DNA from: Candidatus Poribacteria bacterium
Lineage (GTDB): Bacteria > Poribacteria > WGA-4E > WGA-3G
Reading direction: 5' to 3'
Length of the DNA: 64,000 bases
Assembly (NCBI GenBank): GCA_022819945.1
Contig: JAJEGI010000015.1
Span: forward strand, 11,807-75,806
Position numbers and translations under genes: made by a program. The notes beneath the pieces were generated by a model. That model searched no databases. It saw only the letters and a list, made by a program, of their open reading frames with translations, and had not been told where the DNA came from. Positions 621-55,284 of this stretch are shown here, one piece after another (positions within the stretch are counted from its first letter, which is position 1; each line of letters begins with the position of its first letter).

Positions 621-3371
621 TCAGAAGAGATCCAATTGCTTTACTGTCTCTTCCTCTTTCTTCTTTTTTTCTAGCTCATCTATATTTTCTTTAACACGTT
701 CCAAACCGTTACCGTGTAAAAAACCTTCTAATAACCTTTTCTCTTTGTGTCCGGGAGGCAACGTTTCGGAAATAGCTTGTGCGACACGATGGAATGCATC
801 ATTCAATTGGTAACCTTCCCTCTCAAAAACGCCAAGGATTTCTTCATGCCGTGGATCCTCTGCCCACAGTAACAACACATAATGCAGAACGTCAATCAAT
901 TCACTTGCACCTTTGAGTTCGTTTGTTGTTCTGTCATGTGGCCCGAGGACGCGGATAAATTGCTTCTCTTTCTGGATAAAACTGCGTCCGCCCCACCCTT
1001 GGGCAAGGTCAATCCCGCAGGACTGTGCTAATTTCCGAGCGTCATCAAAAGGCACACGTTTTGTCCCGTATTCCCATCGCCAGATAACATAAAAGCGCGT
1101 GAGAGAAGTAATTTTCCCCTCTTCAAAACCATTTCGTAAAATCTTTTTCACAGCGTAATTGGTTACCATTTTTTGCACATCGGTGAGAAGACTGTCTGCT
1201 CGTATTATGTTCGCGTGACGATCCATTACCTTCTTGTATTTGCCAAATATCTCAATTGCTGAACCAATACCAGCTATGAAAAAGTCCGTCCCACTCAAAC
1301 CTTCAGTCCAAAGGCTATCAAGTTTTTCCTTGAGATGGGTTTCCATTTCCGTTTTTACGTCACTATAGAAACCTGTTTCTTTGCGCTCCATTTTCCGAGC
1401 GACAATATAGATAGAAGAAGCAAGGACAGCCGATTCTTGGGCACGGAGACGTGAGGTCATTTCTGTATGAAGAGGCCACGCGCCCGTCATTATGAGGCCG
1501 GAATCAAGCAAAGAATTAATCAATGTTTCCCATCCTGCTGTAGATTTATGGGCGTAGACAATGACGGCAATTCCGTTCGGTTTCAATACACGATAGATTT
1601 CTTGAAAAGAGTCTCTTAGTTTTTCTTCAAAGAACCGCTTGCCTTCCGCGAAGCCACCTGGACCATGTGAATAGGCAACGATCTCGTTATTCTTCGGTGT
1701 CAACGGTGTAGAAAAGAGATCGGGATCAACACTCCCAAGCGTTCGCTTCAGCCAAACATAAAAGAAATCTGAGAGATATGAATAGGGAACGTTGTCGTAA
1801 TATGGTGGATCAGTGAAAACAGCATCAAAAAAATTATCGTGATGCGGGAGGTTAGTGGCTGAGGAATGGGTAACATCAGCGGATTTTGAACTGGATTGTG
1901 AACAGTGTTCAATTACCTTAAAAAAATATTTGCAGCCACTCTCAAAACTTCCAGCCGAACCACTAAATGGATTTACTTCGGCATAATCCCAAATCATTGG
2001 CAGAGCCTGCCTTGAGTACAGATGTGCAACTCCTTCTGAACCGTTTAACCAGCGGACAAGCATATTGCTAACTGCCGCTGTCATGTCAAGTGCTAATGCT
2101 AAATAGCTCACAACTGCCTTGGCGTATTCTATATCAGTTTCCTTCACTACTATCTGTTGATATGCTTCCCTTACCTTCTCTACGAACGTAACCAACATCA
2201 ATTTCTGCCTTGCGTTAAAGAGATCGCCCCAGGTGTTCATTCCATAGTTTTGAACGGAAAATGCTCTTTCAGCTCCCCTTCCTTTTCCTTCTGGAGTAGG
2301 TTCATCTGGCACCGCCTCAATACCCCATTCCAACGTTAACTTCTCCTGCTTCTCTGCAAGAAATGTCTTAGCCCGCTCAAAGACAACCTCGTCGTCAACC
2401 GTAGCCACGCGATAACGCTTACCTCGCACACCCGGCTTGTACGTTACAACGGCAACCATCCGCTCACCTGCTTTTCCCTCCTGAAAAAGTTGCTTAGTCT
2501 GCTTTGAAGTTACCGTCCCACCGCAGGTTGGATTAGGACACACCGCGACAGCTTTTGAGACCGTGCCTTTCGTCGGATCAAAACCGTTGGGTATCGGTCC
2601 GTAGTCATCGCCAACAATCTTAAACTCAACATGCTCGTTCTTAACATCCGGATAAAGGGCAATTTTTTTCTCCTTTTTCCTCTGCTCCGTTTTCTCTTTC
2701 TTTACCAGCCAGAATTGTTTCATCAGGGGAATCTCCATACCACATAATGGATTCTGACATGGAATCGTTCGCGCCCAAATCCACCCAACGACACGCGAAC
2801 CATCTGCTTCTTCTTCATAAAAATCTTTTAGTTCCGCCTTCACTTCCTCAAGCACCCACGTGCTCCATTTTTTCACATCTTCCAGCAAGCGATTTCTGAA
2901 ACTCCTCTTAGAGACAGAACCGTACGTCTGTGGGTATTCTAACGTGCATTTCTGGATCAGGACCGAGACAGGGTTGAGATCACTAGAATAAGTTTTACAA
3001 CCAAGCCGAAGTGTCTCTAGTGGAATCGCCCCACCACCTCCAAAAGGATCCAACACTTTCGGGGGTTCACCCTCGTTAGCTGTAAGGATTTCTTCTCGTG
3101 CCCTTTCAATCAAATGCGCGTTCAAAAGATTTTCCCACTTTGAAAGTTTAATGATAAAATCACGCCTTTGATTCCTTTCTAAATAACCCTTCTTCGGTGC
3201 CTGTGTCAGTGCTGCATAAGCAGTAGCGCGTGAAGAGGCAAGCGGCCGCCGAGCCCACCAGACGTGAAGCGTGGAGATATGTCCATGTCGTATGTACTTA
3301 TCACGGATAGATTCCTCGGAAACCTCTTTAACAGGGAACGATTCTTCAATAAGACGTTTATCTTCTTGCAT
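621..3371 (-). CDS. DUF1156-family DNA methyltransferase (N6-adenine/N4-cytosine gamma-class motifs), paralogue a, 916 aa
   Basis: N-terminal 'HISTLHVWWARRPL' signature; SAM-binding motif I-like 'LDPFGGGGAIPLETLRLG'; catalytic motif IV 'FTDPPYYDNVPY'. ~70% aa identity to the 9813..12476 protein. 33-nt gap to the downstream DUF499-a start. Confidence 0.85.
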   Translation of the reverse strand: MQEDKRLIEESFPVKEVSEESIRDKYIRHGHISTLHVWWARRPLASSRATAYAALTQAPKKGYLERNQRRDFIIKLSKWENLLNAHLIERAREEILTANEGEPPKVLDPFGGGGAIPLETLRLGCKTYSSDLNPVSVLIQKCTLEYPQTYGSVSKRSFRNRLLEDVKKWSTWVLEEVKAELKDFYEEEADGSRVVGWIWARTIPCQNPLCGMEIPLMKQFWLVKKEKTEQRKKEKKIALYPDVKNEHVEFKIVGDDYGPIPNGFDPTKGTVSKAVAVCPNPTCGGTVTSKQTKQLFQEGKAGERMVAVVTYKPGVRGKRYRVATVDDEVVFERAKTFLAEKQEKLTLEWGIEAVPDEPTPEGKGRGAERAFSVQNYGMNTWGDLFNARQKLMLVTFVEKVREAYQQIVVKETDIEYAKAVVSYLALALDMTAAVSNMLVRWLNGSEGVAHLYSRQALPMIWDYAEVNPFSGSAGSFESGCKYFFKVIEHCSQSSSKSADVTHSSATNLPHHDNFFDAVFTDPPYYDNVPYSYLSDFFYVWLKRTLGSVDPDLFSTPLTPKNNEIVAYSHGPGGFAEGKRFFEEKLRDSFQEIYRVLKPNGIAVIVYAHKSTAGWETLINSLLDSGLIMTGAWPLHTEMTSRLRAQESAVLASSIYIVARKMERKETGFYSDVKTEMETHLKEKLDSLWTEGLSGTDFFIAGIGSAIEIFGKYKKVMDRHANIIRADSLLTDVQKMVTNYAVKKILRNGFEEGKITSLTRFYVIWRWEYGTKRVPFDDARKLAQSCGIDLAQGWGGRSFIQKEKQFIRVLGPHDRTTNELKGASELIDVLHYVLLLWAEDPRHEEILGVFEREGYQLNDAFHRVAQAISETLPPGHKEKRLLEGFLHGNGLERVKENIDELEKKKKEEETVKQLDLF

Positions 3372-3394
3372 ATTAAATCCTTCTCGCTATATTT

Positions 3395-3676
3395 TCAACA
3401 ACCTACTAACTGAACAAGCAAAAACACACCTATACTCAAAATACAAAAAACGCCCGCAAAAAGTAACCAGATGGGCCCCACTCCCTTCCAATTTACGCGC
3501 GTATTTGCTTTTTTCCCAGCGCGTGGTGAGGAAAGCATGCGCTGTTCATATCTCTGTAGTGCCGCTTTTGCTCTTGAATCTTGTGTCCTTCTAAGCCATT
3601 TTATTGTCTGATGCTTTGCATAACTTTTATCAGACCAGGATTCACTGTCTACCACATAAATAAGAAGTTGAATCAC
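3395..3676 (-). CDS. hypothetical small protein with C-terminal transmembrane helix
   Basis: 93-aa ORF immediately upstream (24-nt gap) of MTase-a; hydrophobic C-terminus 'GPIWLLFAGVFCILSIGVFLLVQLVGC'; no recognisable family. Confidence 0.3.
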   Translation of the reverse strand: MIQLLIYVVDSESWSDKSYAKHQTIKWLRRTQDSRAKAALQRYEQRMLSSPRAGKKANTRVNWKGVGPIWLLFAGVFCILSIGVFLLVQLVGC

Positions 3677-3779
3677 TGCCTCAAATGAGCCCTGATATTT
3701 GTCAACGGAATTAGTCGTTTTGGACTTGCAAAAAGTTGTTAAAAAAGTGCCGTGAACCCTTATATTTAGTGGGTTTTTC

Positions 3780-4870
3780 GCTTGATTAATTAACGCAATT
3801 TATGGTAAAATATCAGTAGTAAAATAGGGGATTGTCAGTCCCCTATCCGAACCAAAAGCGAGTTGCTTTTTTCAGGTTCTACAACTGCTTGGTATTTTAC
3901 CAGAAACCGTCAGAAAAAAGCAACTCCTAATTTCATAGGAGTATCTGATGGACTTGATCAAGATCATGGAGATGTTCCCGGATCAAGAGGCGTGTATTGC
4001 TTATTTAGAGCGTCTACGATGGCAAGGATCACCAGAATGTCCGCATTGTGAGTCCACACACGTCAAACAACGCAACGAAAGCGATACAGGGCGAATTGGA
4101 CGCTATAACTGTCATGGGTGTCGCTCAACGTTCAAAGTAACGTCCGGCACGATCTTTCACGGCACAAAGATACCGCTTCAGAAGTGGTTTGTTGCGATCG
4201 GACTCATGGCAAACGCAAAGAAAAGTCTCTCAAGTTGCCAACTCGCTCGTGACTTAGGACTCAAGCAGAAAGCGGTTTGGCGGATGATGATGGCAATCCG
4301 TGCCGAGATGAGCAAGGATAACGTGCTACTACAGGGAATTGTAGAGGCAGATGAGACGTACATCGGGGGGAAACGCAAGAAAGACTACGATAAGGAAGCG
4401 GGTGAGCCTCGTAAGCGTGGACGTGGAACGGTGAAAGATGCCGTGATCGGGGCTATTGAGCGCGGTGGAAAGGTCGTCGCGAAGTTGATCCCCGACATCA
4501 CCGGTAAGACGATCCTTGAGTTTATCAAGCGGTTCGTCAAGACCGAAGACTCCGAACTCTATACTGACCAGTATCGTGGATACAACGAAGTCGGTAAAGA
4601 GATGGCACATGAGACCATGAATCGGAGTGAGAAATGGGAAGCCGATGGGATACATACCAACACAATGGAAGGCTTTTGGTCATTTGTAAAGCGTGCATGG
4701 TATGGATCGCATCATCACTATTCAACAGGATACACGCCCCTGTATCTCGCAGAGGCGTGCTATAAGTATAACTACAGAGAAACTAACATGTTTGATAAGT
4801 TTCTCAGGGAGCTGTGGGAATGAGTAAAGAAGAATTAATTGACCAAAAACTTAAGGAAATACTGTATCAA
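3780..4870 (+). mobile_element. IS1595-family insertion sequence (boundaries approximate; terminal inverted repeats not resolved)
   Basis: Contains a single IS1595-type transposase gene between the two DUF1156/DUF499 modules. Only a weak 'caattaatt'-type match between the flanks; exact ends need comparison with an empty site. Confidence 0.4.
3948..4823 (+). CDS. IS1595-family (ISXO2-like) DDE transposase, 291 aa
   Basis: N-terminal Zn-ribbon 'CPHCES...RYNCHGCRSTF' followed by a DDE_Tnp_IS1595-like core ('ADETYIGGKRK', 'YTDQYRGY', 'HTNTMEGFWSFVKR'). Confidence 0.85.
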   Translation: MDLIKIMEMFPDQEACIAYLERLRWQGSPECPHCESTHVKQRNESDTGRIGRYNCHGCRSTFKVTSGTIFHGTKIPLQKWFVAIGLMANAKKSLSSCQLARDLGLKQKAVWRMMMAIRAEMSKDNVLLQGIVEADETYIGGKRKKDYDKEAGEPRKRGRGTVKDAVIGAIERGGKVVAKLIPDITGKTILEFIKRFVKTEDSELYTDQYRGYNEVGKEMAHETMNRSEKWEADGIHTNTMEGFWSFVKRAWYGSHHHYSTGYTPLYLAEACYKYNYRETNMFDKFLRELWE

Positions 4871-4916
4871 ATCTTCCGTCTGTTTGTTGATTTCATCGAC
4901 GATGAACGCAAATACG

Positions 4917-5147
4917 CTAAAAAAACACAGCCTTGAGAGATTTCATCAAATCGTTTACGTCTTTTATCGTTTTCGTGTATCTGACAATCTCGTGAAGGGG
5001 TAAACGATGTTTTGACACGTCCTCACGGAATGTATCAAGGGTATTTTTCAGCGTTTCAATTTCTTCTTCAAAAGATTCGATCACTTGTTTTCGATCTGTG
5101 TTCATCTGTTCGTCCTTATAGGTTGGAGGGGACCGAAGTCCCCTCAC
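4917..5147 (-). CDS. hypothetical protein (76 aa, doubtful)
   Basis: ORF only; N-terminus is encoded by a GC hairpin (GAGGGGAccgaagTCCCCTC at 5119..5140) that may instead be a structural element. Confidence 0.2.
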   Translation of the reverse strand: MRGLRSPPTYKDEQMNTDRKQVIESFEEEIETLKNTLDTFREDVSKHRLPLHEIVRYTKTIKDVNDLMKSLKAVFF

Positions 5148-5154
5148 AGTTGGG

Positions 5155-5577
5155 TTATTGGGTATAGAATAGCTCAGGATAGAAGTTTAACACTATCCAA
5201 ACAGAAACGGCTGTCCCACCGAGACATCCGGCAGATGTATGGATAAGTCGTTTAATCCTAACCTCTTTCTTGTATGTGTCTGTGTAAGCATCAACATAGG
5301 CAGGTGTTTTGCCGATCAAACGATTTACTGGCGGTGTTGGTGGAATAACTTGAGCCGTTATTGCAATAACACCGCCAATAAGACAACCAAGTGCTGCGGA
5401 TGCACAGAAAGTTCCGGCTAACCAGCCGTAAGGTTCTTGTACGTCGCGTTTGGCATCAGCAATTGCTTGTGCAACATCATTTGTCTGCTGAGCAAGCACA
5501 ACACAAGGCATGCCGAAAATCAGCACTGCCATAACAAGTGCAAACAGTCTAAAAGTCATCACGAATCCTCTGGTCAA
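5155..5577 (-). CDS. hypothetical membrane protein (signal/TM helix plus two further hydrophobic segments)
   Basis: 140 aa; 'FRLFALVMAVLIFGMPCVVLA' N-terminal hydrophobic segment, internal 'GCLIGGVIAITAQVI' and C-terminal 'GGTAVSVWIVLNFY'. Confidence 0.4.
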   Translation of the reverse strand: MTRGFVMTFRLFALVMAVLIFGMPCVVLAQQTNDVAQAIADAKRDVQEPYGWLAGTFCASAALGCLIGGVIAITAQVIPPTPPVNRLIGKTPAYVDAYTDTYKKEVRIKRLIHTSAGCLGGTAVSVWIVLNFYPELFYTQ

Positions 5578-5779
5578 AAGACCAAAGTTCTGATATTAGA
5601 ATGAGTTATTGAGTTTACATCACTTTGACACACAACATCACTTTCCGATGTCACTCGGTTTGATGGTAGAGACCGCCCCAAGCGGAGCGGGTGACATTCT
5701 CTACCAAGTGATGTTCTGAATATTATACAATTTTTTGTATTTTTTGTCAATTTTTAAAATTTCTACAAGTCATAAACGA

Positions 5780-6442
5780 CTAATTCCGATTAAATTTGTT
5801 GTTTCCACCAATCCTTGGAGGTTTATGGAATTCAGCGAACGGTCCAATTCCGGCTTTTGTTGCGACTGCCTCGCCATTAATGTAGAGGAAAGCCTCATCC
5901 TCAAAATTCCAAGTCACCGCTACGTGCATCCACACATCTTTTTTAACGAAATCAGGTGCTGGAACAGACATCAGAGCATCTATATCAAGCGCACTTTCTA
6001 TCAAGAAAACGAACTCGTTCTCACGTTCTCCTGCCCGGGTGCCTTTGCCAATAGAGAAGGAGAGGGCAGCCGTACTCGCATCAAATAACCGATAGGTGCC
6101 TTCACCTGCACCGTCCCAATACGGCTTAAACCAGAACCCAATCGTGCCAGGGTTCTGCATCAGGTAATCGAATTCAATGAACTGCTCCTTGTTATCACCG
6201 AGTTCGATCCCCATTCCATATACACCCTCTTTACTCGGCACGCGCTTTGCTCCGCCCATAATCACGCCATCATTTCCGTTACCACTGGCATCTACAGCAA
6301 CATTCGCGTCTTTTCCTTTGAAGGAGAACCAGACTTCGGGTTCTAAGGTATGTCCGGTATGGGAAAACATTATCAAGCCGATCAAGAGTATCAAACTTAG
6401 CGTTAACGGACTGTCAATAGATTGGATTGTTCGGTTAAACAC
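5780..6442 (-). CDS. secreted LamG/concanavalin-A-like lectin-fold protein
   Basis: 220 aa, N-terminal signal-like hydrophobic stretch; sequence resembles LamG-type jelly-roll domains ('IGFWFKPYWDG', 'WMHVAVTWNFEDEAFLYINGE'). Confidence 0.45.
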   Translation of the reverse strand: MFNRTIQSIDSPLTLSLILLIGLIMFSHTGHTLEPEVWFSFKGKDANVAVDASGNGNDGVIMGGAKRVPSKEGVYGMGIELGDNKEQFIEFDYLMQNPGTIGFWFKPYWDGAGEGTYRLFDASTAALSFSIGKGTRAGERENEFVFLIESALDIDALMSVPAPDFVKKDVWMHVAVTWNFEDEAFLYINGEAVATKAGIGPFAEFHKPPRIGGNNKFNRN

Positions 6443-6564
6443 AGCGTCCTCCTTTTTAATGGAGATATACCTACTATTAAAATTGATTGAACACTCTAAT
6501 AGATAAAAAACTTGTCAAGTATGAGCACTGTTTGATTCTGGATGGCGCGGAAATTCAGTTATCT

Positions 6565-9141
6565 TTATTCATCTAAATCAATACCTAACTGGGCAAACGC
6601 CTCTTTGATTTTATCCTCGTAATCCTGTTCTGACATTTCTCCGTGGGTTGCTCTTAATTCAATCTGGAGGTTATCAAAATTCAACTGAAGCAGATTCATT
6701 ACCCCCATGAGTCCAGCCACCTTTCCCTTTGGTACAGTGAATTGCAAGTGAATCTCTTTACGTCCGCTTGACTCCGGCGGGGGCGAATCACCATCTGATC
6801 CGTTACCATTATCTTTACCTTCTACAATATCTGGTGCGGGAGTCCCCCCCGGTGGATAAGTAACACCACTGCTTTTTTCTTCATTCCCCTCTTCTGATTC
6901 CTTTTGGGCGATACAGATGTCTTCTCGGATTATCACCTCACTTCCAACAAGGGTGATTGACGGTGGGTCCTCCTTGAAATACCGGCAAACAGGCCTTTCA
7001 TCTTCCAATTCACCTAATCCAAACAATCCCTGTTCCACCCCTTGGCGAATTCCAGATTCCCAAGCGTCCTGACCAATGACCCGAGCCTCTCCTGGGGTCT
7101 TTGCACTGGATTGAGAGAGTTGTTCGGTGGATACAGATTCATTTGTTTTAAGGTATCGCTCCTTAATCACCAATGGATGAATGCTTTCAAGAATCTCCCC
7201 ATCTGATTTCAGTTTGTCATAGACAACTTCGTCGAGTTTCTTCGTGTCGCCGTAGGTTGGAACACCTAAATCACCTTCCTTCAACCCTTCTTTGGTAGGA
7301 ATAAACAAGGTTCGATAATAGCGGCGCAGCATATCGTCTATTCCATCTTCAGCCTTTTTCCGCTCTGTCCGAACCTCCTTTGCTTGTTCATTAGTGAGCA
7401 CAAGCGTTTTATCGCCTTCAATAGTCTGATACGCAATAACCTTGCGGAGTTGATTGTAAAATCCACTTCTCTCTCGTCCAAGAGGAACAAGAAAGAGTAC
7501 TGTATTTCGGTTCGCCCTCGGTGTATTCCCCTTCATTTCCAATGTGTTTTTCATCAAAACATCGTCACGCGTTTTAAGGATCACCAGTTTCAGTTCCGTG
7601 TCATCGCGGATGCCTGAACCGTCCTTTTGCCAGATATAAGTATCGAGTCTCTTGCCTGAGAGGTTGCCTTTCAGCACCGTTTCCTCAAGTTCACCAACTT
7701 TGGAGTCGGTAATATTCTCCATCCGGGTTTGTAGCATACGATTTAGATTGGGTTGGTTAGCAAAATAAGTCCGTTCACCGTCGTGTTGAAGATAAAACAG
7801 TTTATTTCGCAATTGTTCATTGGCTTCAACAACGATGCTGGAGGGGTTTCCTGTTGTAGTGGCATTCCGTTTAATCTCTCGCAGATCTGCTCCTTTTTTC
7901 TCTGGATTCGGTTTACCTGAAAATGAGTACAGAAACACAGTCGTCGCGGAACGGCTACCGAATCTGAATCCCTTGTGGGCATCCCCAAGTCCGACATCGA
8001 CCTGTTTTGCGCCAGCAACATCACTCGTAATGTCGGAGGCAATGATGCTGTCATATTCTTGACCGGTGTGCTTTAGTAATTCCTGCCGAATTTCCTGAAT
8101 ACTGAGATCGAAATCCGCCAGCGTGATATAAGGGAGGGTTTTCTCTCTAAGGGAATAAAGTACGAGTGACAACAAACGCAATACTCCGCGCGTGCGTTGA
8201 AAATTTGGAAAGCTCCCCCACCGTTGATACAGCACATCAATCACTTCGGGCAGAAACGGATACGCGGTTTCAAATCGCCTTCGATATTCTGAAGGTTCCA
8301 TTCCGGGGGGCAGCATAGATTCACTAACGGCGTAATCCATGAAATCCTGAATTATTTTACCGGCGGCATCAGTATCAATTGACGAAAAAAGTCTACTTCT
8401 GATGACTTCACTAATCTCATGCTCTTGTACTGGTGTATAGATCCTCTCCACCCGTCCTGAAACATGACTAAATTGCTCAAATAGGCGTTGGGCTTGTTCA
8501 TCATAATGTTCCATGGTGCCTGATGGCAGTGTGATAACCAGTGCTACCTTTTCTAAAATACCAGCCGCCTCGGTCAGTTCTTGCATAAAGGCCGCGGTTT
8601 GGGCTGCAAGCGTGCTGTCCGCCACCCGAACACCAGCAGCTTTGGTTACATATTCCAATACTTCGTCCATCAGGATAAGCACAGGTTGTTTTTCCGACAG
8701 CAGCTCGTAGATGGCATCACGCCCTGGTGAAGTCAATCCATCAAAACGCTCTATCTTGCCGGTCAATTGCTTTTCCAACACGCCCCATAATGTATCATTG
8801 GCACCCATCGGTGTTCCGACAATCACCGCTTCTTGTGCCTTCCACTCACTCGCCTTGTGATACATCGCAATCAACGCATGGGTTTTACCACCACCGAAAG
8901 GTGTTTGTAGTTGAATGACAGGATCGCCGCTTTGTCCCTTAAGCCTCCGTTCAATAATTGAAAGCAGATGCTTGAGCCCCGCAGTTTCGTGGGTTTTCTG
9001 GGAAAACTGCGTAGGATCTCTGTATTCATCCGGTGCTGTCCCTCTGAAGACCTCCCACAAGTCTGCGGCGAATACATCCAGTGTGAGTCTGCCCTCCAAT
9101 ATATCAGGGTGCGCCACAGCGATTGCGTGAAATGGCATCAT
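6565..9141 (-). CDS. DUF499-family P-loop ATPase, paralogue b, 858 aa
   Basis: 'MMPFHAIAVAHPDIL' N-terminus, P-loop 'TPFGGGKTHA', 'LILMDEV' Walker-B-like; start ATG overlaps the HepT stop (ATGA). Confidence 0.85.
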   Translation of the reverse strand: MMPFHAIAVAHPDILEGRLTLDVFAADLWEVFRGTAPDEYRDPTQFSQKTHETAGLKHLLSIIERRLKGQSGDPVIQLQTPFGGGKTHALIAMYHKASEWKAQEAVIVGTPMGANDTLWGVLEKQLTGKIERFDGLTSPGRDAIYELLSEKQPVLILMDEVLEYVTKAAGVRVADSTLAAQTAAFMQELTEAAGILEKVALVITLPSGTMEHYDEQAQRLFEQFSHVSGRVERIYTPVQEHEISEVIRSRLFSSIDTDAAGKIIQDFMDYAVSESMLPPGMEPSEYRRRFETAYPFLPEVIDVLYQRWGSFPNFQRTRGVLRLLSLVLYSLREKTLPYITLADFDLSIQEIRQELLKHTGQEYDSIIASDITSDVAGAKQVDVGLGDAHKGFRFGSRSATTVFLYSFSGKPNPEKKGADLREIKRNATTTGNPSSIVVEANEQLRNKLFYLQHDGERTYFANQPNLNRMLQTRMENITDSKVGELEETVLKGNLSGKRLDTYIWQKDGSGIRDDTELKLVILKTRDDVLMKNTLEMKGNTPRANRNTVLFLVPLGRERSGFYNQLRKVIAYQTIEGDKTLVLTNEQAKEVRTERKKAEDGIDDMLRRYYRTLFIPTKEGLKEGDLGVPTYGDTKKLDEVVYDKLKSDGEILESIHPLVIKERYLKTNESVSTEQLSQSSAKTPGEARVIGQDAWESGIRQGVEQGLFGLGELEDERPVCRYFKEDPPSITLVGSEVIIREDICIAQKESEEGNEEKSSGVTYPPGGTPAPDIVEGKDNGNGSDGDSPPPESSGRKEIHLQFTVPKGKVAGLMGVMNLLQLNFDNLQIELRATHGEMSEQDYEDKIKEAFAQLGIDLDE

Positions 9142-9482
9142 TCGCTTCTCTCCTTAAGGATTTGTTGAATTTGCGTTTTCAGCGGCGGAAGCTTGGCCTG
9201 TAACGCATCCCAAACCACATCCATGTTAATATTAAAGTATACATGGATCACTCTATTTCTGAACCCCGCAATATTATGCCATGGAACGCTTGGATACTTC
9301 TCTCGGATGGAATCGGGTATCTTCTTGACAGCTTCACCAATAATTCCAAGGTTTCGGATAACAGCGTCAACCCGCATCTGATCCGCCTCAAACGCACTGC
9401 GAGTCATACCTTCAACGTATGATGCGATACGGTCAGCTGCCTCCACTATGTCTTGGAGGTATAGGTTATAGTTCCGTGACAT
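9138..9482 (-). CDS. hepT: HepT-like (DUF86/HEPN) RNase toxin
   Basis: 114 aa; HEPN Rx4-6H motif region 'FRNRVIHVY'; follows the nucleotidyltransferase gene with a 17-nt overlap, the typical MntA-HepT arrangement. Confidence 0.75.
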   Translation of the reverse strand: MSRNYNLYLQDIVEAADRIASYVEGMTRSAFEADQMRVDAVIRNLGIIGEAVKKIPDSIREKYPSVPWHNIAGFRNRVIHVYFNINMDVVWDALQAKLPPLKTQIQQILKERSE

Positions 9483-9810
9483 ACTCTACCTCTTTTTCAA
9501 TATAAGGTTTGTAACCCGGTTTGATGGATGTGGGGGTCACAAGGTCAATGTCCTTCTTAAACAGATCTTCCAGAAAAACAGCCAACCCCATGTAATCGTC
9601 AAAAGTCAATCTTTCGAGTTCAACGAGAAAATCAATGTCGCTTGCGGCAGTTGCCGTCCCTCGCACGTAAGATCCGAACAAGCCGATCCGTTTAACCCCG
9701 TATTTCCGCAGGGTTTTTCGATTGTCCACAAGGGTCTGCTTGATAAACGCCTTGCTAAGAATTTTTTGATCTTCCAAACTTAAATCCTCCACTAAGGCAC
9801 TTTCTAACAC
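9466..9810 (-). CDS. mntA: MntA-like minimal nucleotidyltransferase antitoxin
   Basis: 114 aa; 'GLFGSYVRGTATAASDIDFLVEL' = GS...DxD polymerase-beta-type nucleotidyltransferase motif. Confidence 0.75.
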   Translation of the reverse strand: MLESALVEDLSLEDQKILSKAFIKQTLVDNRKTLRKYGVKRIGLFGSYVRGTATAASDIDFLVELERLTFDDYMGLAVFLEDLFKKDIDLVTPTSIKPGYKPYIEKEVEYVTEL

Positions 9811-9812
9811 GT

Positions 9813-12476
9813 CTAAAAGAGTTGTCCTTGTCGTATGTCCTCTCTGACCTTTTCACGTCCGGCAAGGAAACCGTCCAGTAGTTTTTTCTCTCTATTTTCA
9901 ATCGGTAGTGTTTCAGAAATGGCTTGCGCGACCCGATAGAACGCCTCGCTGTCTCCATAGCTGCTGTCCCTAAGCACGCGAAGCATTTCATCACGTTGTC
10001 CCTTTTCCCACAGTAATAGGGCCTTGTGCAGGATGTCTATTAACTCTTTAGTATTAGAAAGATCATCAAGCACTCGCGTTTGCGGTCCGAGGACTCGAAT
10101 AAATTGCTTCTCTTTCTTGATAAAACTGCTCCCACCCCACTCTTGTGCAAGGTCAACCCCACAGGATTGTGCTAACTTTCGCGCTTCATCAAACGGGACG
10201 CGCGCTTCGCGATATTCCCATCTCCAGAGGACATAGAAGCGAGTAAGATCGGAAATTTCACCGGCGAACCCGTTGTGCAAAATTTGTCTCACGGCGTAAT
10301 CGGTGGCGATCTCCCGCACATCGTCAAGCAGGCGATCGGCGCGAATTACCTCTCCTTCAAAATCAATAACCTTCTCGTATTTACCGAAAACCTCAATAGC
10401 AGAACCAATAGCGGCAATAAAGAAATCCGCGCCGCTTAGACCTTCCTCCCAAAGACGGTGGAGCTTAGCGTTGAGATGCGTTGTTATTTCTTCTTTAACT
10501 TCATTGTAGAAACCTGTCGGTTGACGTTCCATTTTCCGGGCAACAATATAGATGGAGGAAGCAAGAGCTGCGGATTCATTAGCCGTAAGTCGTGTAACCA
10601 TTTCGGTACGTAGAGGCCAAGCACCTGTCATAATGAGACCAGAATCCAGCAAAGAGTTAATCAAAGTTTCCCATCCTTCTGTGGACTTGTGGGCATAGAC
10701 AATAATAGTCACGCCGTTAGGATTTAACACACGATAGATTTCCTGAAAGGATTGCTTGAGATTTTCCTCAAAGAAGCCCTTGTCTTTGTGTGCATATCTC
10801 CTCGAATCCCACCCCGCCATTTCTGTAATTTCCTGATTTTTCGGAGCAAGAGGGGTCGAAAAAAGTTCTGGGTACAAATCACCAACTGTTCTTTTAAGCC
10901 AAACATAGAAAAAATCGGATAAATCCGCGTATGGAACGCTATTGTAATATGGTGGATCGGTAAAGACCGCATCAAAGAATTCATCAGGATACGCAATATC
11001 AGTAGCAGAAAAGTGAGAGATCACGGCATTTTGTGGGAAAAGCGTTGAACTTAACTGTGAAATAATTTCGGTAGCAATTTCAACTTGACTTAACCAATTT
11101 CCTGTTAAAGTGCCATACGGGTTTTGCTCTGAATAATCAAAAACCATTGGGAGTGCTTGCCTCCCAAAAACATTGAAACTTCTTTCTCCTAAAGGTTCCC
11201 ACCAACAGGAAGTCGAATTATAACTTGAATGCCGGCTTAATATTAGAGCCAAGTAACTCACCACTGCCTTCGCATACTCTACATCAACGTCTTCTGCTAC
11301 TAATTTTTGATATACCGCTTTCACTTTCTCCACAAATGTAATCAACGCTAACTTTTGTCTTGCATTAAAGAGATCTCCCCAAGTATTTATTCCGTAAATA
11401 GCAACATTAAATACTCCACTCATTAAAGGGAGCTCTTCATCAGGTACCGGATTCATACCCCACTCCAACGTCAACTGTTCCTGTTTTTCTGCAAGGCACG
11501 CTTTTGCAGACTTAAAAACAACAAAATCAGCCTCCGTTGCCACGCGATAGTGCTTATCCCTCGTCCCCGGCTTTTGCATGACAACAGCAACCATTCGTTG
11601 TCCTGCTTTCCCTTGTTGAAATAGTTTTCGTGTTGTTTTCGCCTCTATCGGTCTACCACAGATAGGACAAACTGCCACAGCACGTGAGATGCTGCCTATC
11701 TTCGGGTCAAAATCATTAGGTATCCGTTCGTACCCGTCACCAACAATCTTGAACTTGATATTCTTGTCTTGAGGATAAGGGTAAAGTGCAACCTTCTTTC
11801 GTGTCTTGTTTGCCAGCCAGAATTGTTTCATCAGCGGAATTTCTGCCCCACATGAAGGGTTTTGGCACGGAATTGTTCTTGCCCAAATATAACCTACTGG
11901 AATTGAACCATCTTTCTCCTCACGATAAAATTTGCCTAATTCTTTCTTCGCTTCTACAAGGACCCAGTTTCCCCATTTTTTAACATCTTCCGATAAAGTT
12001 ATTTCCGTTGTTGCGCTAAGTGAACTACCGTACTTTTGCGGGTATTCCAATGTACATTTCTGAATTAGAACAGCTACAGGATTGAGATCGTTGGAATAAG
12101 TTTCGCACCCAAGCCGAAGTGTCTCCAGAGGAATTGCACCGCCTCCACCAAAAGGATCCAGAACCTTCGGTGGGATACCGTCGTTCGCTTCAAGGATCTC
12201 CCTCTGTGCTTTTTTAAGCAGATGGGGATTTAGAGAATTTTCCCATTTTGAAAGGTTTATAATAAACTCTCGTTTCCGACTCCATTCATCAGTATCTTGT
12301 GAAGGTGGTACAAGGGCAGCATAGGCGGTTGCACGTGATGCAGCAAGCGGACGTCGCGCCCACCAGATATGGAGCGTAGAGATATGTCCACGCCGTATGT
12401 TTTTCTCATGGACGGATTCAGCGGAAACTTCTTTGACAGGAAAGGTTTCTTCAATGAGGCGTTTGTCTTCGTTCAT
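9813..12476 (-). CDS. DUF1156-family DNA methyltransferase, paralogue b (888 aa from the Met aligned with paralogue a; the ORF-track start at 12578 is probably an upstream in-frame extension)
   Basis: 'MNEDKRLIEETFPV' aligns with the paralogue-a N-terminus; 'HIWWARRPL', 'LDPFGGGGAIPLETLRLG', 'FTDPPYYNSVPY' motifs. 3-nt gap to the mntA start. Confidence 0.85.
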   Translation of the reverse strand: MNEDKRLIEETFPVKEVSAESVHEKNIRRGHISTLHIWWARRPLAASRATAYAALVPPSQDTDEWSRKREFIINLSKWENSLNPHLLKKAQREILEANDGIPPKVLDPFGGGGAIPLETLRLGCETYSNDLNPVAVLIQKCTLEYPQKYGSSLSATTEITLSEDVKKWGNWVLVEAKKELGKFYREEKDGSIPVGYIWARTIPCQNPSCGAEIPLMKQFWLANKTRKKVALYPYPQDKNIKFKIVGDGYERIPNDFDPKIGSISRAVAVCPICGRPIEAKTTRKLFQQGKAGQRMVAVVMQKPGTRDKHYRVATEADFVVFKSAKACLAEKQEQLTLEWGMNPVPDEELPLMSGVFNVAIYGINTWGDLFNARQKLALITFVEKVKAVYQKLVAEDVDVEYAKAVVSYLALILSRHSSYNSTSCWWEPLGERSFNVFGRQALPMVFDYSEQNPYGTLTGNWLSQVEIATEIISQLSSTLFPQNAVISHFSATDIAYPDEFFDAVFTDPPYYNSVPYADLSDFFYVWLKRTVGDLYPELFSTPLAPKNQEITEMAGWDSRRYAHKDKGFFEENLKQSFQEIYRVLNPNGVTIIVYAHKSTEGWETLINSLLDSGLIMTGAWPLRTEMVTRLTANESAALASSIYIVARKMERQPTGFYNEVKEEITTHLNAKLHRLWEEGLSGADFFIAAIGSAIEVFGKYEKVIDFEGEVIRADRLLDDVREIATDYAVRQILHNGFAGEISDLTRFYVLWRWEYREARVPFDEARKLAQSCGVDLAQEWGGSSFIKKEKQFIRVLGPQTRVLDDLSNTKELIDILHKALLLWEKGQRDEMLRVLRDSSYGDSEAFYRVAQAISETLPIENREKKLLDGFLAGREKVREDIRQGQLF

Positions 12477-12706
12477 GCAGTATCCTTTTTGTGAAGGTTT
12501 GGTCGTTTTTTCGACTCCCCTATTCAAAACTATAGGTTTGTGACGTGGCAATACAACTGAGGATTTATAGCATATCAAAGATGTATGAAGATTTCAATGC
12601 AATTGTCGGAGAACGCATATAATGTTGCATCCTTGACGTGCGATAAATCGCACTACTACGAACCGATAAGCGCGTTATTCCAAGACTGTTTTTATCAAGG
12701 CCTGGT

Positions 12707-14716
12707 TTATGTTTCACCAAAAGCCTCGCGAATTTTTTGGAAAAGTCTGATGGTCTTCTCCTTCGTCTCACCGGGTAGCTCGCTGGCATCTTGCATATTG
12801 CTAAGTTTGTTTCGCAATCGCTTTGCTATCGATCCCTTATTTGCCGTTATATCCTTTTCTTCCAGAAAACTCTCAATTCTTTTCCAAAGCACACCCTCAC
12901 CTTGCAACGTAAAGTCATCTACGCCAGCATGCGCAAGTTCTCTACTATAAGTTTCCTTAATAATTGCTTTCATAAAGTCTTCAGTAAAAATATCTTCAAG
13001 TTCAAAATCACCACTGGCACCTATAGCATCGCCTAGCAAAATGGCTTCAGTGTGAGATTCTGTATACTGCGTAAGCCACTTCTTAACCAATTTATCTTTA
13101 GCGCGTCGCCCCTCATCGTCAGAATCAAACAAAGCAACTACGTTAAGACGCTGACCAATCATAAGAGTAGCAACATGAACGGCTTCAGAAGCACTTGTTC
13201 CTGGTGTGATGCGGACATCTTCTGGCAGGCCTTCCTCTTCAATTCGTTTTAACCAATTTGACAATCCTGCTAGAATATAGTAGTCATGAACGCCCTCCAC
13301 AACAAGATTGCGATCAGCGATCAGAAGACTCTGTGAGGCATCCATCCCTAACGCTGCTTGAAGCACAAACTTTGCTTCTGGTGGGCTTTCGACAAGGTCT
13401 GTTGTTACAACGATGCCGTTATCTGTTTCCTTTAGCACTCGAATTCGGTCTGGATGATTCAAATCAATCATGAAGGGAAGATGTGTTGTATAGAGAAGTA
13501 TATTTCCCTTAGCATAGTATTCAAGCCGATCAAGTAAGTCTTTCTGTGCTTCTGGATGAAGGTGGAGTCCGGGTTCATCCAAAAGAACAACACAACCTTC
13601 AAACGTCCCTTCACTTTCGTGCATGAACATGAGGTCAAATGAGAAAAACCATTGAAATCCTTTGGATCTCTCCTCCAATTCAATGAGGGCTTCATCAAGA
13701 TCATCCTTTAGAAAAGTAAAGAAATCCTGATTATCAACATCATATTCAACTTCATAATTGCGTTGACGAAATCGATCTGAGATTAAGTTTGTTAGAGTGC
13801 TCCCACCGTCAGCAAGATCAAATTGTCGTTGCTTACGGGTTTCTGCATCGCCCTGTCCAAGCTGAATCAAGTTATTTAGATCAAGCCCTGATAAGTTAAG
13901 GATTGTGAGAAAGGTCTTGTCTTCTTCCGTCAAACGATTGTTATTTTGACGAGATTGAATCTCATCAAGTTGTGCAGCCCCGCTAAATGCTTTATAATCG
14001 TCCATGTAGATAAATGTGGGCAAATGATCAGTAATATATTCATGAATTTTTGATTGAATAGAGGGTAATGGTTCAAGCGTATGAACAAGCTGTGCAAGAC
14101 CTGCAATGTACGCGCTGATAAAGTTGTTCTCAATTTGCTGTGGGGGTTCCGATGGCGATAGGACCTCTTGCAACAACATTTGGTGCTTTTGAGCTAATCC
14201 TCTTAAATCGGTGAATCGACCTTCATGTGCAAAACGTCTCACTTCTTTGAGGCATTCATCAGCACGTTGTTTGAATGGAACCCCAAAATCACTTTGAACC
14301 TGTGGTAGAACACTACAAGCATTATTAACATCGTTAGGATCTGGTTTATCCGAGAAAATCTCATCCTCAAAGTCTATAACTAATTGCCCTGCATAATTCC
14401 GGGACACTTCTATGGTATCAGGGAATATCGCATTCTCAGCAATCTGGGTGAGTTCGGATTTTTCTTGATCTGAAAGTCGAAACTTTGCCCGGCAAACCTC
14501 TTGCTCTTCGCTTTGTTCTTGCCGTCGGCCGCGTGGCCATTCCTTCCTCATAACATAAGGCTCGGGGGTGTAAGGATTAAGCTTATGAAGTGCTTTCAGA
14601 AGGGAGGTTTTTCCCGATTCATTTTTGCCAACGAGTACCGTTAGTGGATTCACTTCGACCCATCCAGAGTCAAGGATCCCTTTGTACATAGTAACACGAA
14701 AAGAAATCAAGTCCAT
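12707..14716 (-). CDS. OLD-family ATP-dependent endonuclease (ABC ATPase + Toprim), 669 aa
   Basis: Walker A 'LVGKNESGKTSLLKAL'; 'VVLLDEPGLHLHPEAQ' ABC signature/Walker B typical of AAA_21/OLD; C-terminal Toprim 'LVVEGVHDYYIL' and 'LFDSDDEGR'. Confidence 0.8.
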   Translation of the reverse strand: MDLISFRVTMYKGILDSGWVEVNPLTVLVGKNESGKTSLLKALHKLNPYTPEPYVMRKEWPRGRRQEQSEEQEVCRAKFRLSDQEKSELTQIAENAIFPDTIEVSRNYAGQLVIDFEDEIFSDKPDPNDVNNACSVLPQVQSDFGVPFKQRADECLKEVRRFAHEGRFTDLRGLAQKHQMLLQEVLSPSEPPQQIENNFISAYIAGLAQLVHTLEPLPSIQSKIHEYITDHLPTFIYMDDYKAFSGAAQLDEIQSRQNNNRLTEEDKTFLTILNLSGLDLNNLIQLGQGDAETRKQRQFDLADGGSTLTNLISDRFRQRNYEVEYDVDNQDFFTFLKDDLDEALIELEERSKGFQWFFSFDLMFMHESEGTFEGCVVLLDEPGLHLHPEAQKDLLDRLEYYAKGNILLYTTHLPFMIDLNHPDRIRVLKETDNGIVVTTDLVESPPEAKFVLQAALGMDASQSLLIADRNLVVEGVHDYYILAGLSNWLKRIEEEGLPEDVRITPGTSASEAVHVATLMIGQRLNVVALFDSDDEGRRAKDKLVKKWLTQYTESHTEAILLGDAIGASGDFELEDIFTEDFMKAIIKETYSRELAHAGVDDFTLQGEGVLWKRIESFLEEKDITANKGSIAKRLRNKLSNMQDASELPGETKEKTIRLFQKIREAFGET

Positions 14717-14774
14717 AGTAAAGTACGAAACCTCTTAAATTGATTGGTATTGTCTTGACACATCCTATATGATG

Positions 14775-17700
14775 TCACAGTATATTGCTTTCCCCAGAAT
14801 ACTTTACACTTTTTTCCCGAATTTCATTCAAAGAAATCTGATACCGAACTGCTTCAATCTTTTCCTCCGGTTGTGTATGTTCAGCTGGATTCTGAATGAT
14901 ATGGAGTTCAGGCTTCTGGGTTGCAGCATTGAGAACAACATAGAGGAAATAGTCAGATTGAAACTGCTGTGCTTTGAACCACTCGTTTTGTGTCAGAACC
15001 ACCGAACCATATCCAGCCCGGGCTTTGACTTCAATATAGCGTTTGACACCTGTCGAGTCGGTTGAACGGACATCAAAACCGAGATTTTCAGCAGCGACAT
15101 CTTCAGGAACACGCCCGTGTTCACACTCGTAACGCATTGTTACTTCCATACCAATCTGCTCAATTTGCGGGTCGCTTTTCATTGCTGTGTCGGTAACTGA
15201 ACTCGGAATTACTCGAATTGCAGAAACAAAATTGGGCGTACTCATTGTGAGAAGACGTTCTTGAGCGATAGTTTCCTCCAATTTTTTTAAAGCATCCTCA
15301 TAACCCTGTTTCTGTTCCTCTTTGTTACGTATAATCCGATCAACCTTATCGCCTGCATCTCGGCGGGTATAGAGATGAATTAGATCGCTATCCAGCTCAA
15401 GGCAGAGATGCTCAAGCGAAGTGCGTCCGTATTTCTCTTTAATTTCTGTCTGCCGTTTGCGTTCAACCTCAAGTTCAGCTTTGTAACCTTCAAGTCCAGG
15501 CATCAATTTTGCCATGACAAGTCCTTTCAAGGTTTCAATATCTTCTGATAGGACTTGCTGTGTGCTTTCTGCTATATCCCAAATTATCTTCGGATCTATG
15601 GGTTCAACTGTTACTGTATCAGGTTGCACGTAGAAGGCAAACAGACGCACGCCAGCAATCTGACCTAAACCGTCGCGGATCTCACCCTCATAGAACAGAA
15701 TCACACCATCCATTTTCCCATCCGGGTCTTCAAAGACTGCTCCCTGTTTTAGACAATCAGAAAGTTCGCTTCCAACCCATTGGAGAACAGCTTCAAATAG
15801 CGGGTGACCAAAAGAGATGAATTCCGCATCGGGGTTTTTAAAGGCAAGTTCTTTATCGAAAGTGGCTTTCGGATAGGTTTTCAATATAGAACCGTGTTTC
15901 CGTTTAAATTCCACCACTTCAGCAATTCGTCGGATCTGGATCGGGATCCTTTCAATCGTAAGAAACTTATCTCTACGGTCATGCAATCTACCTTTGAGCT
16001 CAGCAAAGGCTTTTCGGAAAAAGGCTTCGGTATATTCTGGGATGAGTCGCTGTTCGCGGGCGCGCTCTGCCATTTCGCGAATGCGGGTGTAATCAATATA
16101 ATGGGTTGCGAGGCTTTCCGCCAAGTTCTCTTTGACCTGCGTAATGTATGCCTCATCTACCTCAATGTCAATTTCTGCAAGAATTTCATCAATTCCTTTT
16201 GCAGAAGCTGCTGCTTGCAATAAAAGTTGAGAGAGATTCACACCATAGAGTACTTCGTTCAGGACATCAAAAACCTTATCGCTACCTAAAGCGGTTTGGA
16301 TCTCTCTAATCTTCTTGAAAAGGGCAGTCAATACCATCCCTTCTCGTGTATCTTCGGCCACAAGGTTTACCACGAAGCACTCTTTAGTTTGTCCATACCG
16401 ATGGATACGTCCCATCCGTTGCTCCAAGCGATTAGGGTTCCAAGGCAAGTCATAATTAATCATAAGGTGACAGAACTGAAGGTTAATTCCCTCGCCAGCG
16501 GCTTCGGTAGCGATTAAAATCCGCGTTCGATTTTTGAATTCGTTTTCAGCTGCAATCCGTTCCTCAAGTTTCATGCCCCCGTGAATAACCGTAACGGTAT
16601 AACCCCAGGCCTCCATTTTATCCTGAAGGTATGACAACGTATCCCGAGATTCCGTGAAAATGAGAATTTTTTCACCAGAGAAATCGGCCTCAAGATCGTC
16701 AAGCGTTTTTCTCAACTCCCGCACCTTAATTTCGGCTTCGCTTGTAATAATCTCCTGTGCTGCTTCTGAGAGTGCTTCAAGGGTTTCGATTTCACGTCTG
16801 AGTTCTTCCCGATTCTCTGCCACGGAAAGTGTTTCCCAAATTTCTTCCTCTTTCCATCTGTCCTCTTCACTCAAATCATCAATTGTTTCAAAATCAATCG
16901 TGCCAATAGAAGCCTTCCTTTCTACTACACCCTCTAACAATTCCTGAAGACGAGCTTTTCGACGCATAAGTGAGTTGCGTAACGCATAAGTGCTGGATGC
17001 CAACCGCCTCTGTAAAATTACAAGTGCGAACGCTACATTATTCTTTTTATCTTTTGTCAAGGCCTTATTGTACTGGGTATTGACATAATCAGAGAGTTCG
17101 TTGTAGAGCTCTTTCTCTTTTGGTGAGTCAACGCCGAGATCAAATGAGAGTGTATCAACGTGTCGAGGGAGAAACAACGGTTTGCCTTCAAAATCTTTCA
17201 AATCTTCCTTGACACGTCGAAGGAAAAGCGGATTATCTCTTGCTGTAATAGATTCACTCAGCATCTGGCTTGTTGCAAAAAAACCTGGCTCAAGAAGATC
17301 TAAGAATAATCTGAAATTCTCGGGATCGCCTTTGTGTGGTGTGGCAGTAAGAAACAAGAGATGGGTTGAAATTCTGGAGAGCGTTTCTCCCAATTCATAC
17401 CGACTGGTTTTTTTCAACTTATTTCCGTACTGGTAAGCTGCCATTTTGTGTGCTTCGTCCACAATGACCAGATCCCACTGAGACGATTCAATCAAGGCTT
17501 TAATATCATCTCGTTTGGCAAAATCAACGGACGTAATTAAATGTGATTCACGTGTCCAAACGTTTTCACCCGGTTGCGCTAAGAGAACTGCCCGATCCAT
17601 TATAAGAAAACTTTCCTCAAACCGCTCTTTCAGTTCCCTCCGCCACTGGTCCTTAAGATGTCCTGGGACGACAATCAGTACGCGGCTAATGAGATGCCTA

Positions 17701-18125: not shown

Positions 18126-18262
18126 ACGTATTTGTTCCTTACATAACTTCCTTAGTCCAGTTTTGATTCAGATACCTTTAACATTGTAAATTACCTTGAA
18201 ATTTAAAGCAATTCTTTATACTATATCTTGCAAGGAAACGATACCTCTATTCCGCATGAGGC

Positions 18263-19078: not shown

Positions 19079-19094
19079 TCAGGTTAATACTGCA

Positions 19095-55027: not shown

Positions 55028-55284
55028 TTAATAGAGCAGGATCAAGTAATTTTATCTATTCCTTTTAACCCAATCCATCACATAAAAATTCATAAAAAAT
55101 TGTCCAAAGTTTAGTCTTCAGTTGTGTTAAAAACACCTTGCTTTTTCGCCCTGAATAAGGTATAATAACCGTGAATTATTTAGAATTGTAGATGGGTATC
55201 CAACACTACACCTTCTGACATAGATAGCATACTACATTGCCTATAAGAAACCGTAAATTCCTCGCGATTGCATGGAGAAACCCG

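Follow-up and report, generated by a model that had tools for sequence, protein, structure and literature searches.

This analysis concerns a HepT/MntA gene pair flanked by the methylase gene and the ATPase gene of an Hma defence operon in a 64,000-nucleotide stretch of DNA, here called the window, from a Candidatus Poribacteria bacterium (GenBank assembly GCA_022819945.1, contig JAJEGI010000015.1, positions 11,807 to 75,806). The pair is probably an autonomous type VII toxin-antitoxin (TA) cassette, which is embedded in the Hma operon and co-transcribed with it. This interpretation draws above all on a series of natural deletions at one Poribacteria chromosomal site, where the presence of the pair and that of the hma genes are independent of one another.

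The triad of helicase (HmaA), methylase (HmaB) and ATPase (HmaC) received the name Hma from Payne et al. (PMC8565338); a 2026 study re-describes it as a Type-1 BREX-related (BR) system with DUF499 at its centre (PMC12839542). Anti-phage activity has been reported for an HmaA helicase-nuclease (PMC11232893). HmaA, HmaB and HmaC are all encoded in the window and co-oriented, and the host operon can be assigned to this Hma (Type-1 BREX-related, DUF499-centred) class. Its genes occupy 18125 to 6565 of the minus strand, in the order hmaA, OLD-like ATPase, hmaB-b, mntA, hepT and hmaC-b (Table 1; coordinates are read from the minus strand). It holds two embedded cassettes typical of such operons, the OLD-like ATPase gene at the hmaA-hmaB junction and the MntA/HepT pair at the hmaB-hmaC junction. 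Three near-identical metagenome contigs show an identical arrangement, which is also conserved in other Poribacteria genomes. The OLD-like gene is shared by the closest Poribacteria orthologues and is missing from the Hma loci L007 and L093 (loci collected in this analysis carry L numbers).

As the initial annotation had proposed, the two genes have the features of a true HepT/MntA pair. HepT matches PF01934 (E = 1.4e-30) over profile positions 2-120 of 120; MntA matches PF01909 (E = 9e-16) and also PF18765, the PADLOC family PDC-S09 (E = 4e-31) and the minimal nucleotidyltransferase 1WOT in the PDB, with no match between HepT and the PADLOC models. The defining motifs of such pairs, RX4HXY in HepT and GSX10DXD in MntA, come from work on Shewanella oneidensis and Thermococcus cleftensis, in which the HepT tyrosine is poly-AMPylated by MntA (PMC7641770). 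Both motifs are present. HepT contains R75-N-R-V-I-H80-V-Y82, in which R75, H80 and Y82 never vary across 22 aligned homologues, and the catalytic Rx4-6H motif, whose absence the initial annotation had named as grounds for rejecting the pair, is thus intact as R75-x4-H80. MntA contains GS-YVRGTATAAS-DID, a motif that is kept in all orthologues, solitary ones included. A single-sequence search of PDB sequences with HepT found nothing, whereas a profile built from 22 HepT sequences reaches S. oneidensis HepT (5YEP, 6M6U; E about 1e-9) and aligns Y82 with Y104 of that protein (motif R-x4-H-D-Y104). The antitoxin gene stands upstream of the toxin gene on the same strand and overlaps it by 17 nucleotides (nt), which is the form expected of the module. 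Pairwise ratios of non-synonymous to synonymous substitution (dN/dS) against orthologues range from 0.05 to 0.18 for mntA and from 0.08 to 0.30 for hepT; both genes are under purifying selection, equally so in embedded and solitary copies. Because the base composition of the pair resembles that of its neighbours, there is no sign of a recent foreign origin. Taken at the level of sequence, the pair is a bona fide and structurally intact type VII TA.

The states of the chromosomal site were gathered in two ways, from the loci of close HepT homologues and, independently, from the neighbours of homologues of the PhyH gene, a look-up that avoids selecting for the pair. The site is bordered by PhyH-GNAT-PhyH on one side and by ADH/sulfatase on the other. 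The full set hmaA-old-hmaB-mntA-hepT-hmaC occupies it in the window and in L005, L006 and L086. L084 retains only mntA-hepT-hmaC, and mntA-hepT alone is present in L085, L087 and L088; solitary copies of the pair are found in these last three loci and in L089. Further reduced forms comprise mntA with a 61-amino-acid (aa) hepT fragment (L092), an 84-aa MNT remnant (L090) and an empty site (L091). The converse arrangement, hmaA-hmaB-hmaC with neither the TA pair nor the OLD-like gene, is found at the same site in L093 (= L021).

Scars in these loci indicate the direction of change. In L085 the last hmaB codons (..QG.LF stop) remain upstream of mntA, and in L087, L088 and L012 the first 10-30 nt of hmaC follow the hepT stop. 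An order of events in which solitary pairs were ancestral and Hma was assembled around them was considered and is ruled out by these hmaB 3' and hmaC 5' pieces; the solitary pairs are, on this sequence evidence, derived and not ancestral. The upstream junctions of L084/L087, L085 and L088 are of different types and the downstream ones vary too, so loss of the hma genes took place several times, each time independently. Specifically, hmaA-old-hmaB was removed in at least three junction types (L084/L087, L085, L088) and hmaC at least three times, each time right up to the pair. The solitary copies nevertheless keep all motifs and a low dN/dS. The truncated copies show, in addition, that the pair decays toxin-first.

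These deletions bear directly on the suggestion, made in the initial annotation, that the pair stabilises the island by addiction, such that loss of the region would kill the cell and the hma neighbours would be protected. TA pairs are classically addictive, and this favours the idea, as does the order of decay, which is the one predicted: HepT is truncated or lost first and MntA stays (L092, L090, L012, L015, L072). Moreover, the surviving deletion derivatives always keep mntA behind a promoter-like block. However, the neighbours have gone unprotected, since hmaA-old-hmaB and hmaC were each lost repeatedly as described above (L084, L085, L087, L088), and the locus is chromosomal, not plasmid-borne. 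Given that the hma neighbours were deleted right up to the pair, any addictiveness would preserve the pair itself and not the island. Addiction of the island is therefore very improbable and is largely refuted by the deletion series. The idea that the pair is a functionless remnant of an old insertion, hitch-hiking as it decays, is scarcely credible: decayed copies do occupy the site in L090 and L092, but both reading frames in the window are intact, with all catalytic motifs present and dN/dS well below 1.

The pair also shows signs of movement. L088 and the window (18263..19502) are 94% identical in PhyH and 89% identical in GNAT, whereas the solitary HepT of L088 is only 66% identical, with a dN/dS of about 0.15. 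Because this flank is 94% identical but HepT only 66%, TA alleles at the site appear to have been exchanged between Poribacteria lineages. In L011, the segment between hmaB and mntA (L011:12745-13679) contains an older hepT 3' end (..LSKEKSE stop) and about 55 older hmaC codons, the latter 88.6% identical to the full downstream copy, after which a complete mntA-hepT-hmaC follows. This recombination scar points to transfer of mntA-hepT-hmaC, as one block, from one Hma locus to another.

The junctions within the pair and with its neighbours were described in the initial annotation as translationally coupled; two of them are confirmed as overlapping. The pair is indeed packed inside the operon on the same strand. 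The mntA stop codon (TAA, 9468..9466) lies within hepT, which begins with ATG at 9482, giving the 17-nt overlap (9466..9482). The hepT stop codon (TGA, 9140..9138) shares the sequence ATGA (9141..9138) with the hmaC-b start codon (ATG, 9141..9139), an overlap of 4 nt, and the hmaC ribosome-binding site, AAGGAG, is located inside the last hepT codons. Both overlaps are kept in the orthologous loci L005, L006, L007, L011, L084 and L086. Coupling to the methylase gene, however, relied on a start codon that is not conserved. The longest mntA open reading frame (ORF) begins at GTG 9810, with 2 nt between it and the hmaB-b stop codon (TAG, 9815..9813); in L004 and L005 this GTG is either missing or not in frame, and in L085 the upstream extension of mntA is interrupted by a TAG. 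The start conserved across related loci is the in-frame TTG 9777, 7 nt after a likewise conserved GGAGGA (9790..9785); at the position of the TTG, ATG is found in L085 and L086 and GTG in L084, L087 and L088. Gene callers likewise give MntA as 103 aa in L002, L004, L005 and L084-L088. Since TTG 9777 is conserved and GTG 9810 is not, the hmaB-mntA junction most likely consists of 35 nt of spacer that carry a separate ribosome-binding site, rather than being a coupling junction of 2-3 nt.

Consensus promoters and terminators were scanned for over 5500..18400 and the outcome compared with shuffled sequence. The 26 sites found, against 20.5 +/- 4.4 in shuffled sequence, are no better than chance. 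No promoter- or terminator-like site was detected on the coding strand between hmaB and hmaC, a weak negative given that the consensus scan does no better than on shuffled sequence. The promoter-like block upstream of hmaA (18183..18211) was missed by the scan, its -35 hexamer being too weak. This block lies directly upstream of mntA in L084, L085 and L087, and the homology of L084 and L085 to the window ends at 18183 and 18178, respectively, just after the -10 hexamer. The lack of a promoter- or terminator-like site between hmaB and hmaC, the 35-nt spacer and the deletion derivatives positioned behind the hmaA promoter-like block are together the reason for concluding that the pair is most likely co-transcribed with the Hma operon. 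Further upstream, a 230-nt non-coding gap (12477..12706, minus strand) separates the OLD-like gene from the likely start of hmaB-b at ATG 12476; the hmaB-b ORF reaches to TTG 12578, with the alignment to the module a paralogue (see below) beginning at residue 35. Inside this gap lies a promoter-like sequence, TTGAAA-17-TATGCT with a TG extension (12597..12569), which may represent an internal promoter for hmaB-mntA-hepT-hmaC.

The biochemical mechanism can be proposed by homology to the characterised pairs. HepT would be an RNA-cleaving enzyme of the HEPN family (HEPN RNase), and MntA would keep it harmless by transferring adenosine monophosphate (AMP) units from adenosine triphosphate (ATP) onto Tyr82, beside the RX4H active site. 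Should the supply of MntA or of ATP fail, through gene loss or infection, unmodified HepT would be expected to cleave RNA and the cell to arrest. At the hmaB-hmaC junction the cassette would use the transcription of the operon, and the 3' end of hepT would in turn supply the ribosome-binding site and overlapping start of hmaC. The presence of the cassette would reflect a general tendency of Hma, BREX and type I restriction-modification (R-M) operons to collect co-oriented accessory cassettes. With the cassette maintained without Hma, and Hma without the cassette, any contribution to defence would constitute an independent second layer.

The embedding of accessory genes in Hma is already documented. 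Embedded genes occur in 931 of 1,485 Hma systems (62.7%), with ABC ATPases the commonest family, and across Hma, BREX, DISARM and type I R-M systems they are co-oriented with their host in 96.7% of cases (Payne et al., bioRxiv 10.1101/2024.01.29.577857). Insertion of HEPN/MNT-type cassettes in Hma has also already been described, and the window operon is one more example. The initial annotation had proposed that other DUF1156/DUF499 loci be checked for such inserts, and they do recur inside Hma loci of several phyla. With both methylase paralogues of the window as query, 80 Hma loci were taken from species-representative genomes; the survey set consists of the 50 with hmaA, hmaB and hmaC in order, which were examined by iterated hidden Markov model searches. 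The closest of the surveyed loci belong to Candidatus Poribacteria. MNT and/or HEPN genes are found inside 18 of the 50 complete loci. The 81 kb of non-core DNA inside these operons contain 20 MNT and 10 DUF86 HepT genes, compared with 2 MNT and 1 HepT matches in 458 kb of flanks, all three of them just upstream of hmaA; all 33 matches (30 inside, 3 beside) are on the hma strand. Chance alone would not produce this arrangement: MNT genes are about 57-fold denser inside the operons than in the flanks (20/81 kb against 2/458 kb, a figure uncorrected for relatedness among loci).

Complete pairs occupy the hmaB-hmaC junction in Poribacteria (L004-L007, L011), a Halobacteriota archaeon (L014, with a HEPN of the PF05168 type), a spirochaete (Spirochaetales, L023) and an actinomycete (Actinomycetota, L082), and the hmaA-hmaB junction in L016, L020 and L068; in the Hma loci L012, L015 and L072, mntA is kept without hepT. 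A Pfam scan of the hmaB-hmaC gaps assigned 12 of 59 ORFs to NTP_transf_2, 6 to HepT-like proteins and 3 to HEPN PF05168. In the hmaA-hmaB gaps the same scan placed ABC ATPases first (15 of 82 ORFs), alongside 5 MNT and 3 HepT genes, PIN, Fic and XisH/XisI. An apparent preference of MNT/HEPN for the hmaB-hmaC junction and of ABC ATPases for the hmaA-hmaB junction was not robust once related Poribacteria loci were collapsed. Three of the surveyed DUF499 ATPases (L066:4425-7898, L047:13394-16537 and L058:8141-11248) carry an N-terminal Schlafen/AlbA_2 domain, and it is for this reason that RNase-type modules are seen, by domain annotation, as also fused at the position where hepT stands as a separate gene in the window. 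Two Poribacteria genomes, OY282383.1 (L008, L010, L075) and OZ240244.1 (L013, L015), contain two or three separate Hma methylase loci each, and in L008, L010 and L013 no hmaA or hmaC was detected within 10 kb.

Published work offers several readings of how embedded genes relate to their host systems. Payne et al. discuss PrrC-like back-up, selfish hitch-hiking and co-regulation for embedded genes (bioRxiv 10.1101/2024.01.29.577857), and HEPN RNases (some with MNT), Schlafen, PIN and OLD-ABC proteins inside BREX/BR loci have been termed 'backup suicidal effectors' (PMC12839542). An abortive-infection back-up role for the window pair, as raised in the initial annotation, is possible and is already a published hypothesis for embedded cassettes (bioRxiv 10.1101/2024.01.29.577857; PMC12839542). 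In its integrated form, this model proposes that HepT is the RNase arm of Hma, held in check by MntA, by the Hma complex (HmaC above all) or by both, and that it is set free once Hma is disabled by a phage, leading to abortive infection; the pair would then be the split-gene counterpart of the HEPN and Schlafen domains at the DUF499 N-terminus. In support of this model, hepT is immediately 5' of hmaC, with the conserved 4-nt overlap and the hmaC ribosome-binding site inside hepT. At the same position, the DUF499 N-terminus, a HEPN domain is fused in 1,370 of 2,446 taxa with Type-1 BR systems (PMC12839542), a fusion first noted by Anantharaman et al. (PMC3710099). The three sampled HmaC proteins with N-terminal Schlafen/AlbA_2, the far higher density of MNT/HEPN genes within Hma loci than in their flanks and the behaviour of mntA-hepT-hmaC as a unit in L084 and L011 point in the same direction. 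Against it, purifying selection maintains intact pairs that have no Hma gene next to them (L085, L087, L088), and Hma exists without the pair both at the same site (L093) and in module a of the window. The same kind of pair is also found at the hmaA-hmaB junction, away from hmaC (L016, L020, L068). Moreover, the HEPN domain of the DUF499 fusions is a member of another HEPN family, Swt1/Abi2 (PMC3710099), so the two arrangements are analogous, not homologous, and characterised MntA is a self-sufficient enzymatic antitoxin (PMC7641770). On balance, an integrated back-up effector of this kind is considered unlikely.

A more specific proposal, that mntA-hepT-hmaC forms a functional unit equivalent to a split HEPN-DUF499 fusion, in which the nucleotide or target-sensing state of the DUF499 ATPase controls AMPylation of HepT by MntA, is decidedly improbable. 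The ATGA overlap, the movement of the block (L011, L084) and the MNT/HEPN enrichment are compatible with it. Wiring of the pair to the state of the ATPase, which the initial annotation had also entertained, is not favoured, as the pair is kept without an adjacent Hma gene and Hma is kept without the pair (L093, module a). If the proposal were true, Hma would possess a switchable RNase arm, secured by an enzymatic safety catch, and control of the pair by the DUF499 ATPase would account for the frequent fusion of RNase modules to DUF499, or their frequent location just upstream of it. The hmaC-b product itself is of the canonical form without an N-terminal HEPN fusion. A conserved R352-x5-H358 (R-x-E-L-x-K-H) is present in the DUF499 core of HmaC, with the arginine in 47 and the histidine in 51 of 54 sequences. 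An internal HEPN domain at this position is not claimed: an hhalign comparison of the HmaC profile with the HepT profile returned nothing, the AlphaFold single-chain model of HmaC-b is of low confidence (mean pLDDT 57.6; residues 289-454 below 50), and the HEPN domains described for DUF499 proteins in the literature are N-terminal and confined to a fused subset.

Several points weigh against an autonomous, co-transcribed cassette. The case for co-transcription is inferred from gene packing and the deletion derivatives, and that for the toxicity and neutralisation of this particular pair from homology. The conserved hepT/hmaC ATGA overlap, together with the joint movement of mntA, hepT and hmaC (L011, L084), could reflect a functional link to HmaC. 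As Poribacteria genomes contain several Hma loci each, a solitary pair could act with an Hma system elsewhere. Finally, the 50-locus sample is biased towards relatives of the query methylase and its members are not phylogenetically independent, such that its figures show recurrence and not rates.

Compared with the characterised HepT/MntA pairs of S. oneidensis (SO_3166/SO_3165) and T. cleftensis, the window pair is alike in its combination of PF01934 and PF01909, in the overlapping mntA-then-hepT order, in its RX4HXY and GSX10DXD motifs, in the placement of Tyr82 at the AMPylated Y104 and in the small size of its proteins (114 and 103 aa). It differs in being located inside a defence operon, in having no recognisable promoter of its own and in a 3' end that also serves the following gene as its translation-initiation region; its identity to the solved proteins is low, and they are reached only through a profile search (E about 1e-9). 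In common with the embedded cassettes of Payne et al., it is positioned between core hma genes, is co-oriented with them, has relatives outside Hma and shares its operon with an ABC ATPase cassette; PDC-S09, which MntA matches, is a candidate family of theirs. HEC-08, the HEPN candidate tested by those authors, is however a DUF3644 HEPN protein with zinc fingers and not a DUF86/MNT pair. The presence of a HEPN RNase with MNT inside the core locus, and of an OLD-ABC gene in the same locus, also resembles the back-up effectors of BREX/BR systems (PMC12839542). As in the HEPN-DUF499 fusions (PMC3710099), HEPN is directly 5' of DUF499; here, though, it is a separate gene of the DUF86 family with its own enzymatic antitoxin, and DUF499 is unfused.

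The paradigm of a second-line abortive response, PrrC of the EcoprrI type Ic R-M operon, is similar in that a HEPN-superfamily RNase gene is nested among restriction-like genes. However, PrrC is an ABC-ATPase-HEPN fusion that is kept silent by binding physically to the R-M complex, with phage anti-restriction factors releasing effectors of this type, and it hardly ever occurs other than embedded, whereas the window HepT has its own antitoxin. Nor does the pair show the near-constant host association of PrrC, as intact solitary pairs occur at the same site and Hma occurs without the pair.

The window thus provides a clean example of defence systems nested in defence systems, in a poorly studied sponge-symbiont phylum. 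A useful by-product is the natural deletion series at a single site, in which an embedded TA pair outlives the Hma genes on both sides, in every case retaining a promoter-like block, and then decays toxin-first. This series offers comparative evidence for autonomous embedded pairs, bears on the interpretation of 'guilt-by-embedding' predictions and could be used to study the turnover of embedded cassettes and their host systems.

Table 1. Features of the Hma region in the window (coordinates in nt; an empty strand cell means that no strand is given)
Feature	Coordinates	Strand	Description
hmaC-a, 5' part of DUF499 paralogue	1..587	-	cut by window end
hmaB-a, paralogous methylase	621..3371	-	module a; no TA pair after it
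IS1595-family transposase	3948..4823	+	separates module b from module a
Unannotated ORF, 76 aa	4917..5147		between modules
Membrane-like ORF, 140 aa	5155..5577		between modules
Laminin_G_3 ORF	5780..6442		between modules (3372..6564)
hmaC-b, DUF499 AAA+ ATPase	6565..9141	-	858 aa; PF04465; PADLOC HmaC E = 1e-118
hepT, predicted HEPN (DUF86) RNase toxin	9138..9482	-	114 aa; PF01934
mntA, predicted MNT antitoxin / adenylyltransferase	9466..9777	-	103 aa from TTG; longest ORF from GTG 9810, 114 aa
Spacer, hmaB-b stop to mntA start	9778..9812	-	35 nt; Shine-Dalgarno GGAGGA 9790..9785
hmaB-b, DUF1156 N6-adenine methyltransferase	9813..12476	-	PF06634; PADLOC HmaB E = 3e-126
OLD/GajA/AriA-like ABC ATPase	12707..14716	-	669 aa; AAA_15/AAA_21 (Pfam); PADLOC Old, AriA, GajA matches
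hmaA	14775..18125	-	1116 aa; SNF2-rel_dom + Helicase_C + C-terminal NOV_C/DUF3883 nuclease-type domain (Pfam); PADLOC HmaA E = 3e-206
Promoter-like block upstream of hmaA	18183..18211	-	TTGCTT, 17 nt, TACAAT; conserved in alignment; putative promoter

The window holds a second, paralogous Hma module (module a) beside the one that contains the pair (module b). The two are true paralogues, with methylases 62% identical and DUF499 N-termini 69% identical. As noted in the initial annotation, module a has no TA insert, the hmaB-a stop codon (623..621) and the hmaC-a ATG (587) being separated by a gap of only 33 nt. No hmaA for module a was found in 3300..6600, and this module may be an incomplete or helicase-sharing Hma copy. 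In the region between the modules, a perfect 12/12 sigma-70 consensus, TTGACA-17-TATAAT (5750..5722, minus strand), is located just downstream of the Laminin_G_3 ORF, with the 140-aa ORF in turn downstream of it. Elsewhere in the window, and unrelated to the pair, genes for two large WD40 beta-propeller proteins (53159..55027 and 58465..60363, both minus strand) flank a UvrD-helicase/RNase_T-exonuclease fusion (55237..58413, plus strand), as identified by a Pfam scan.

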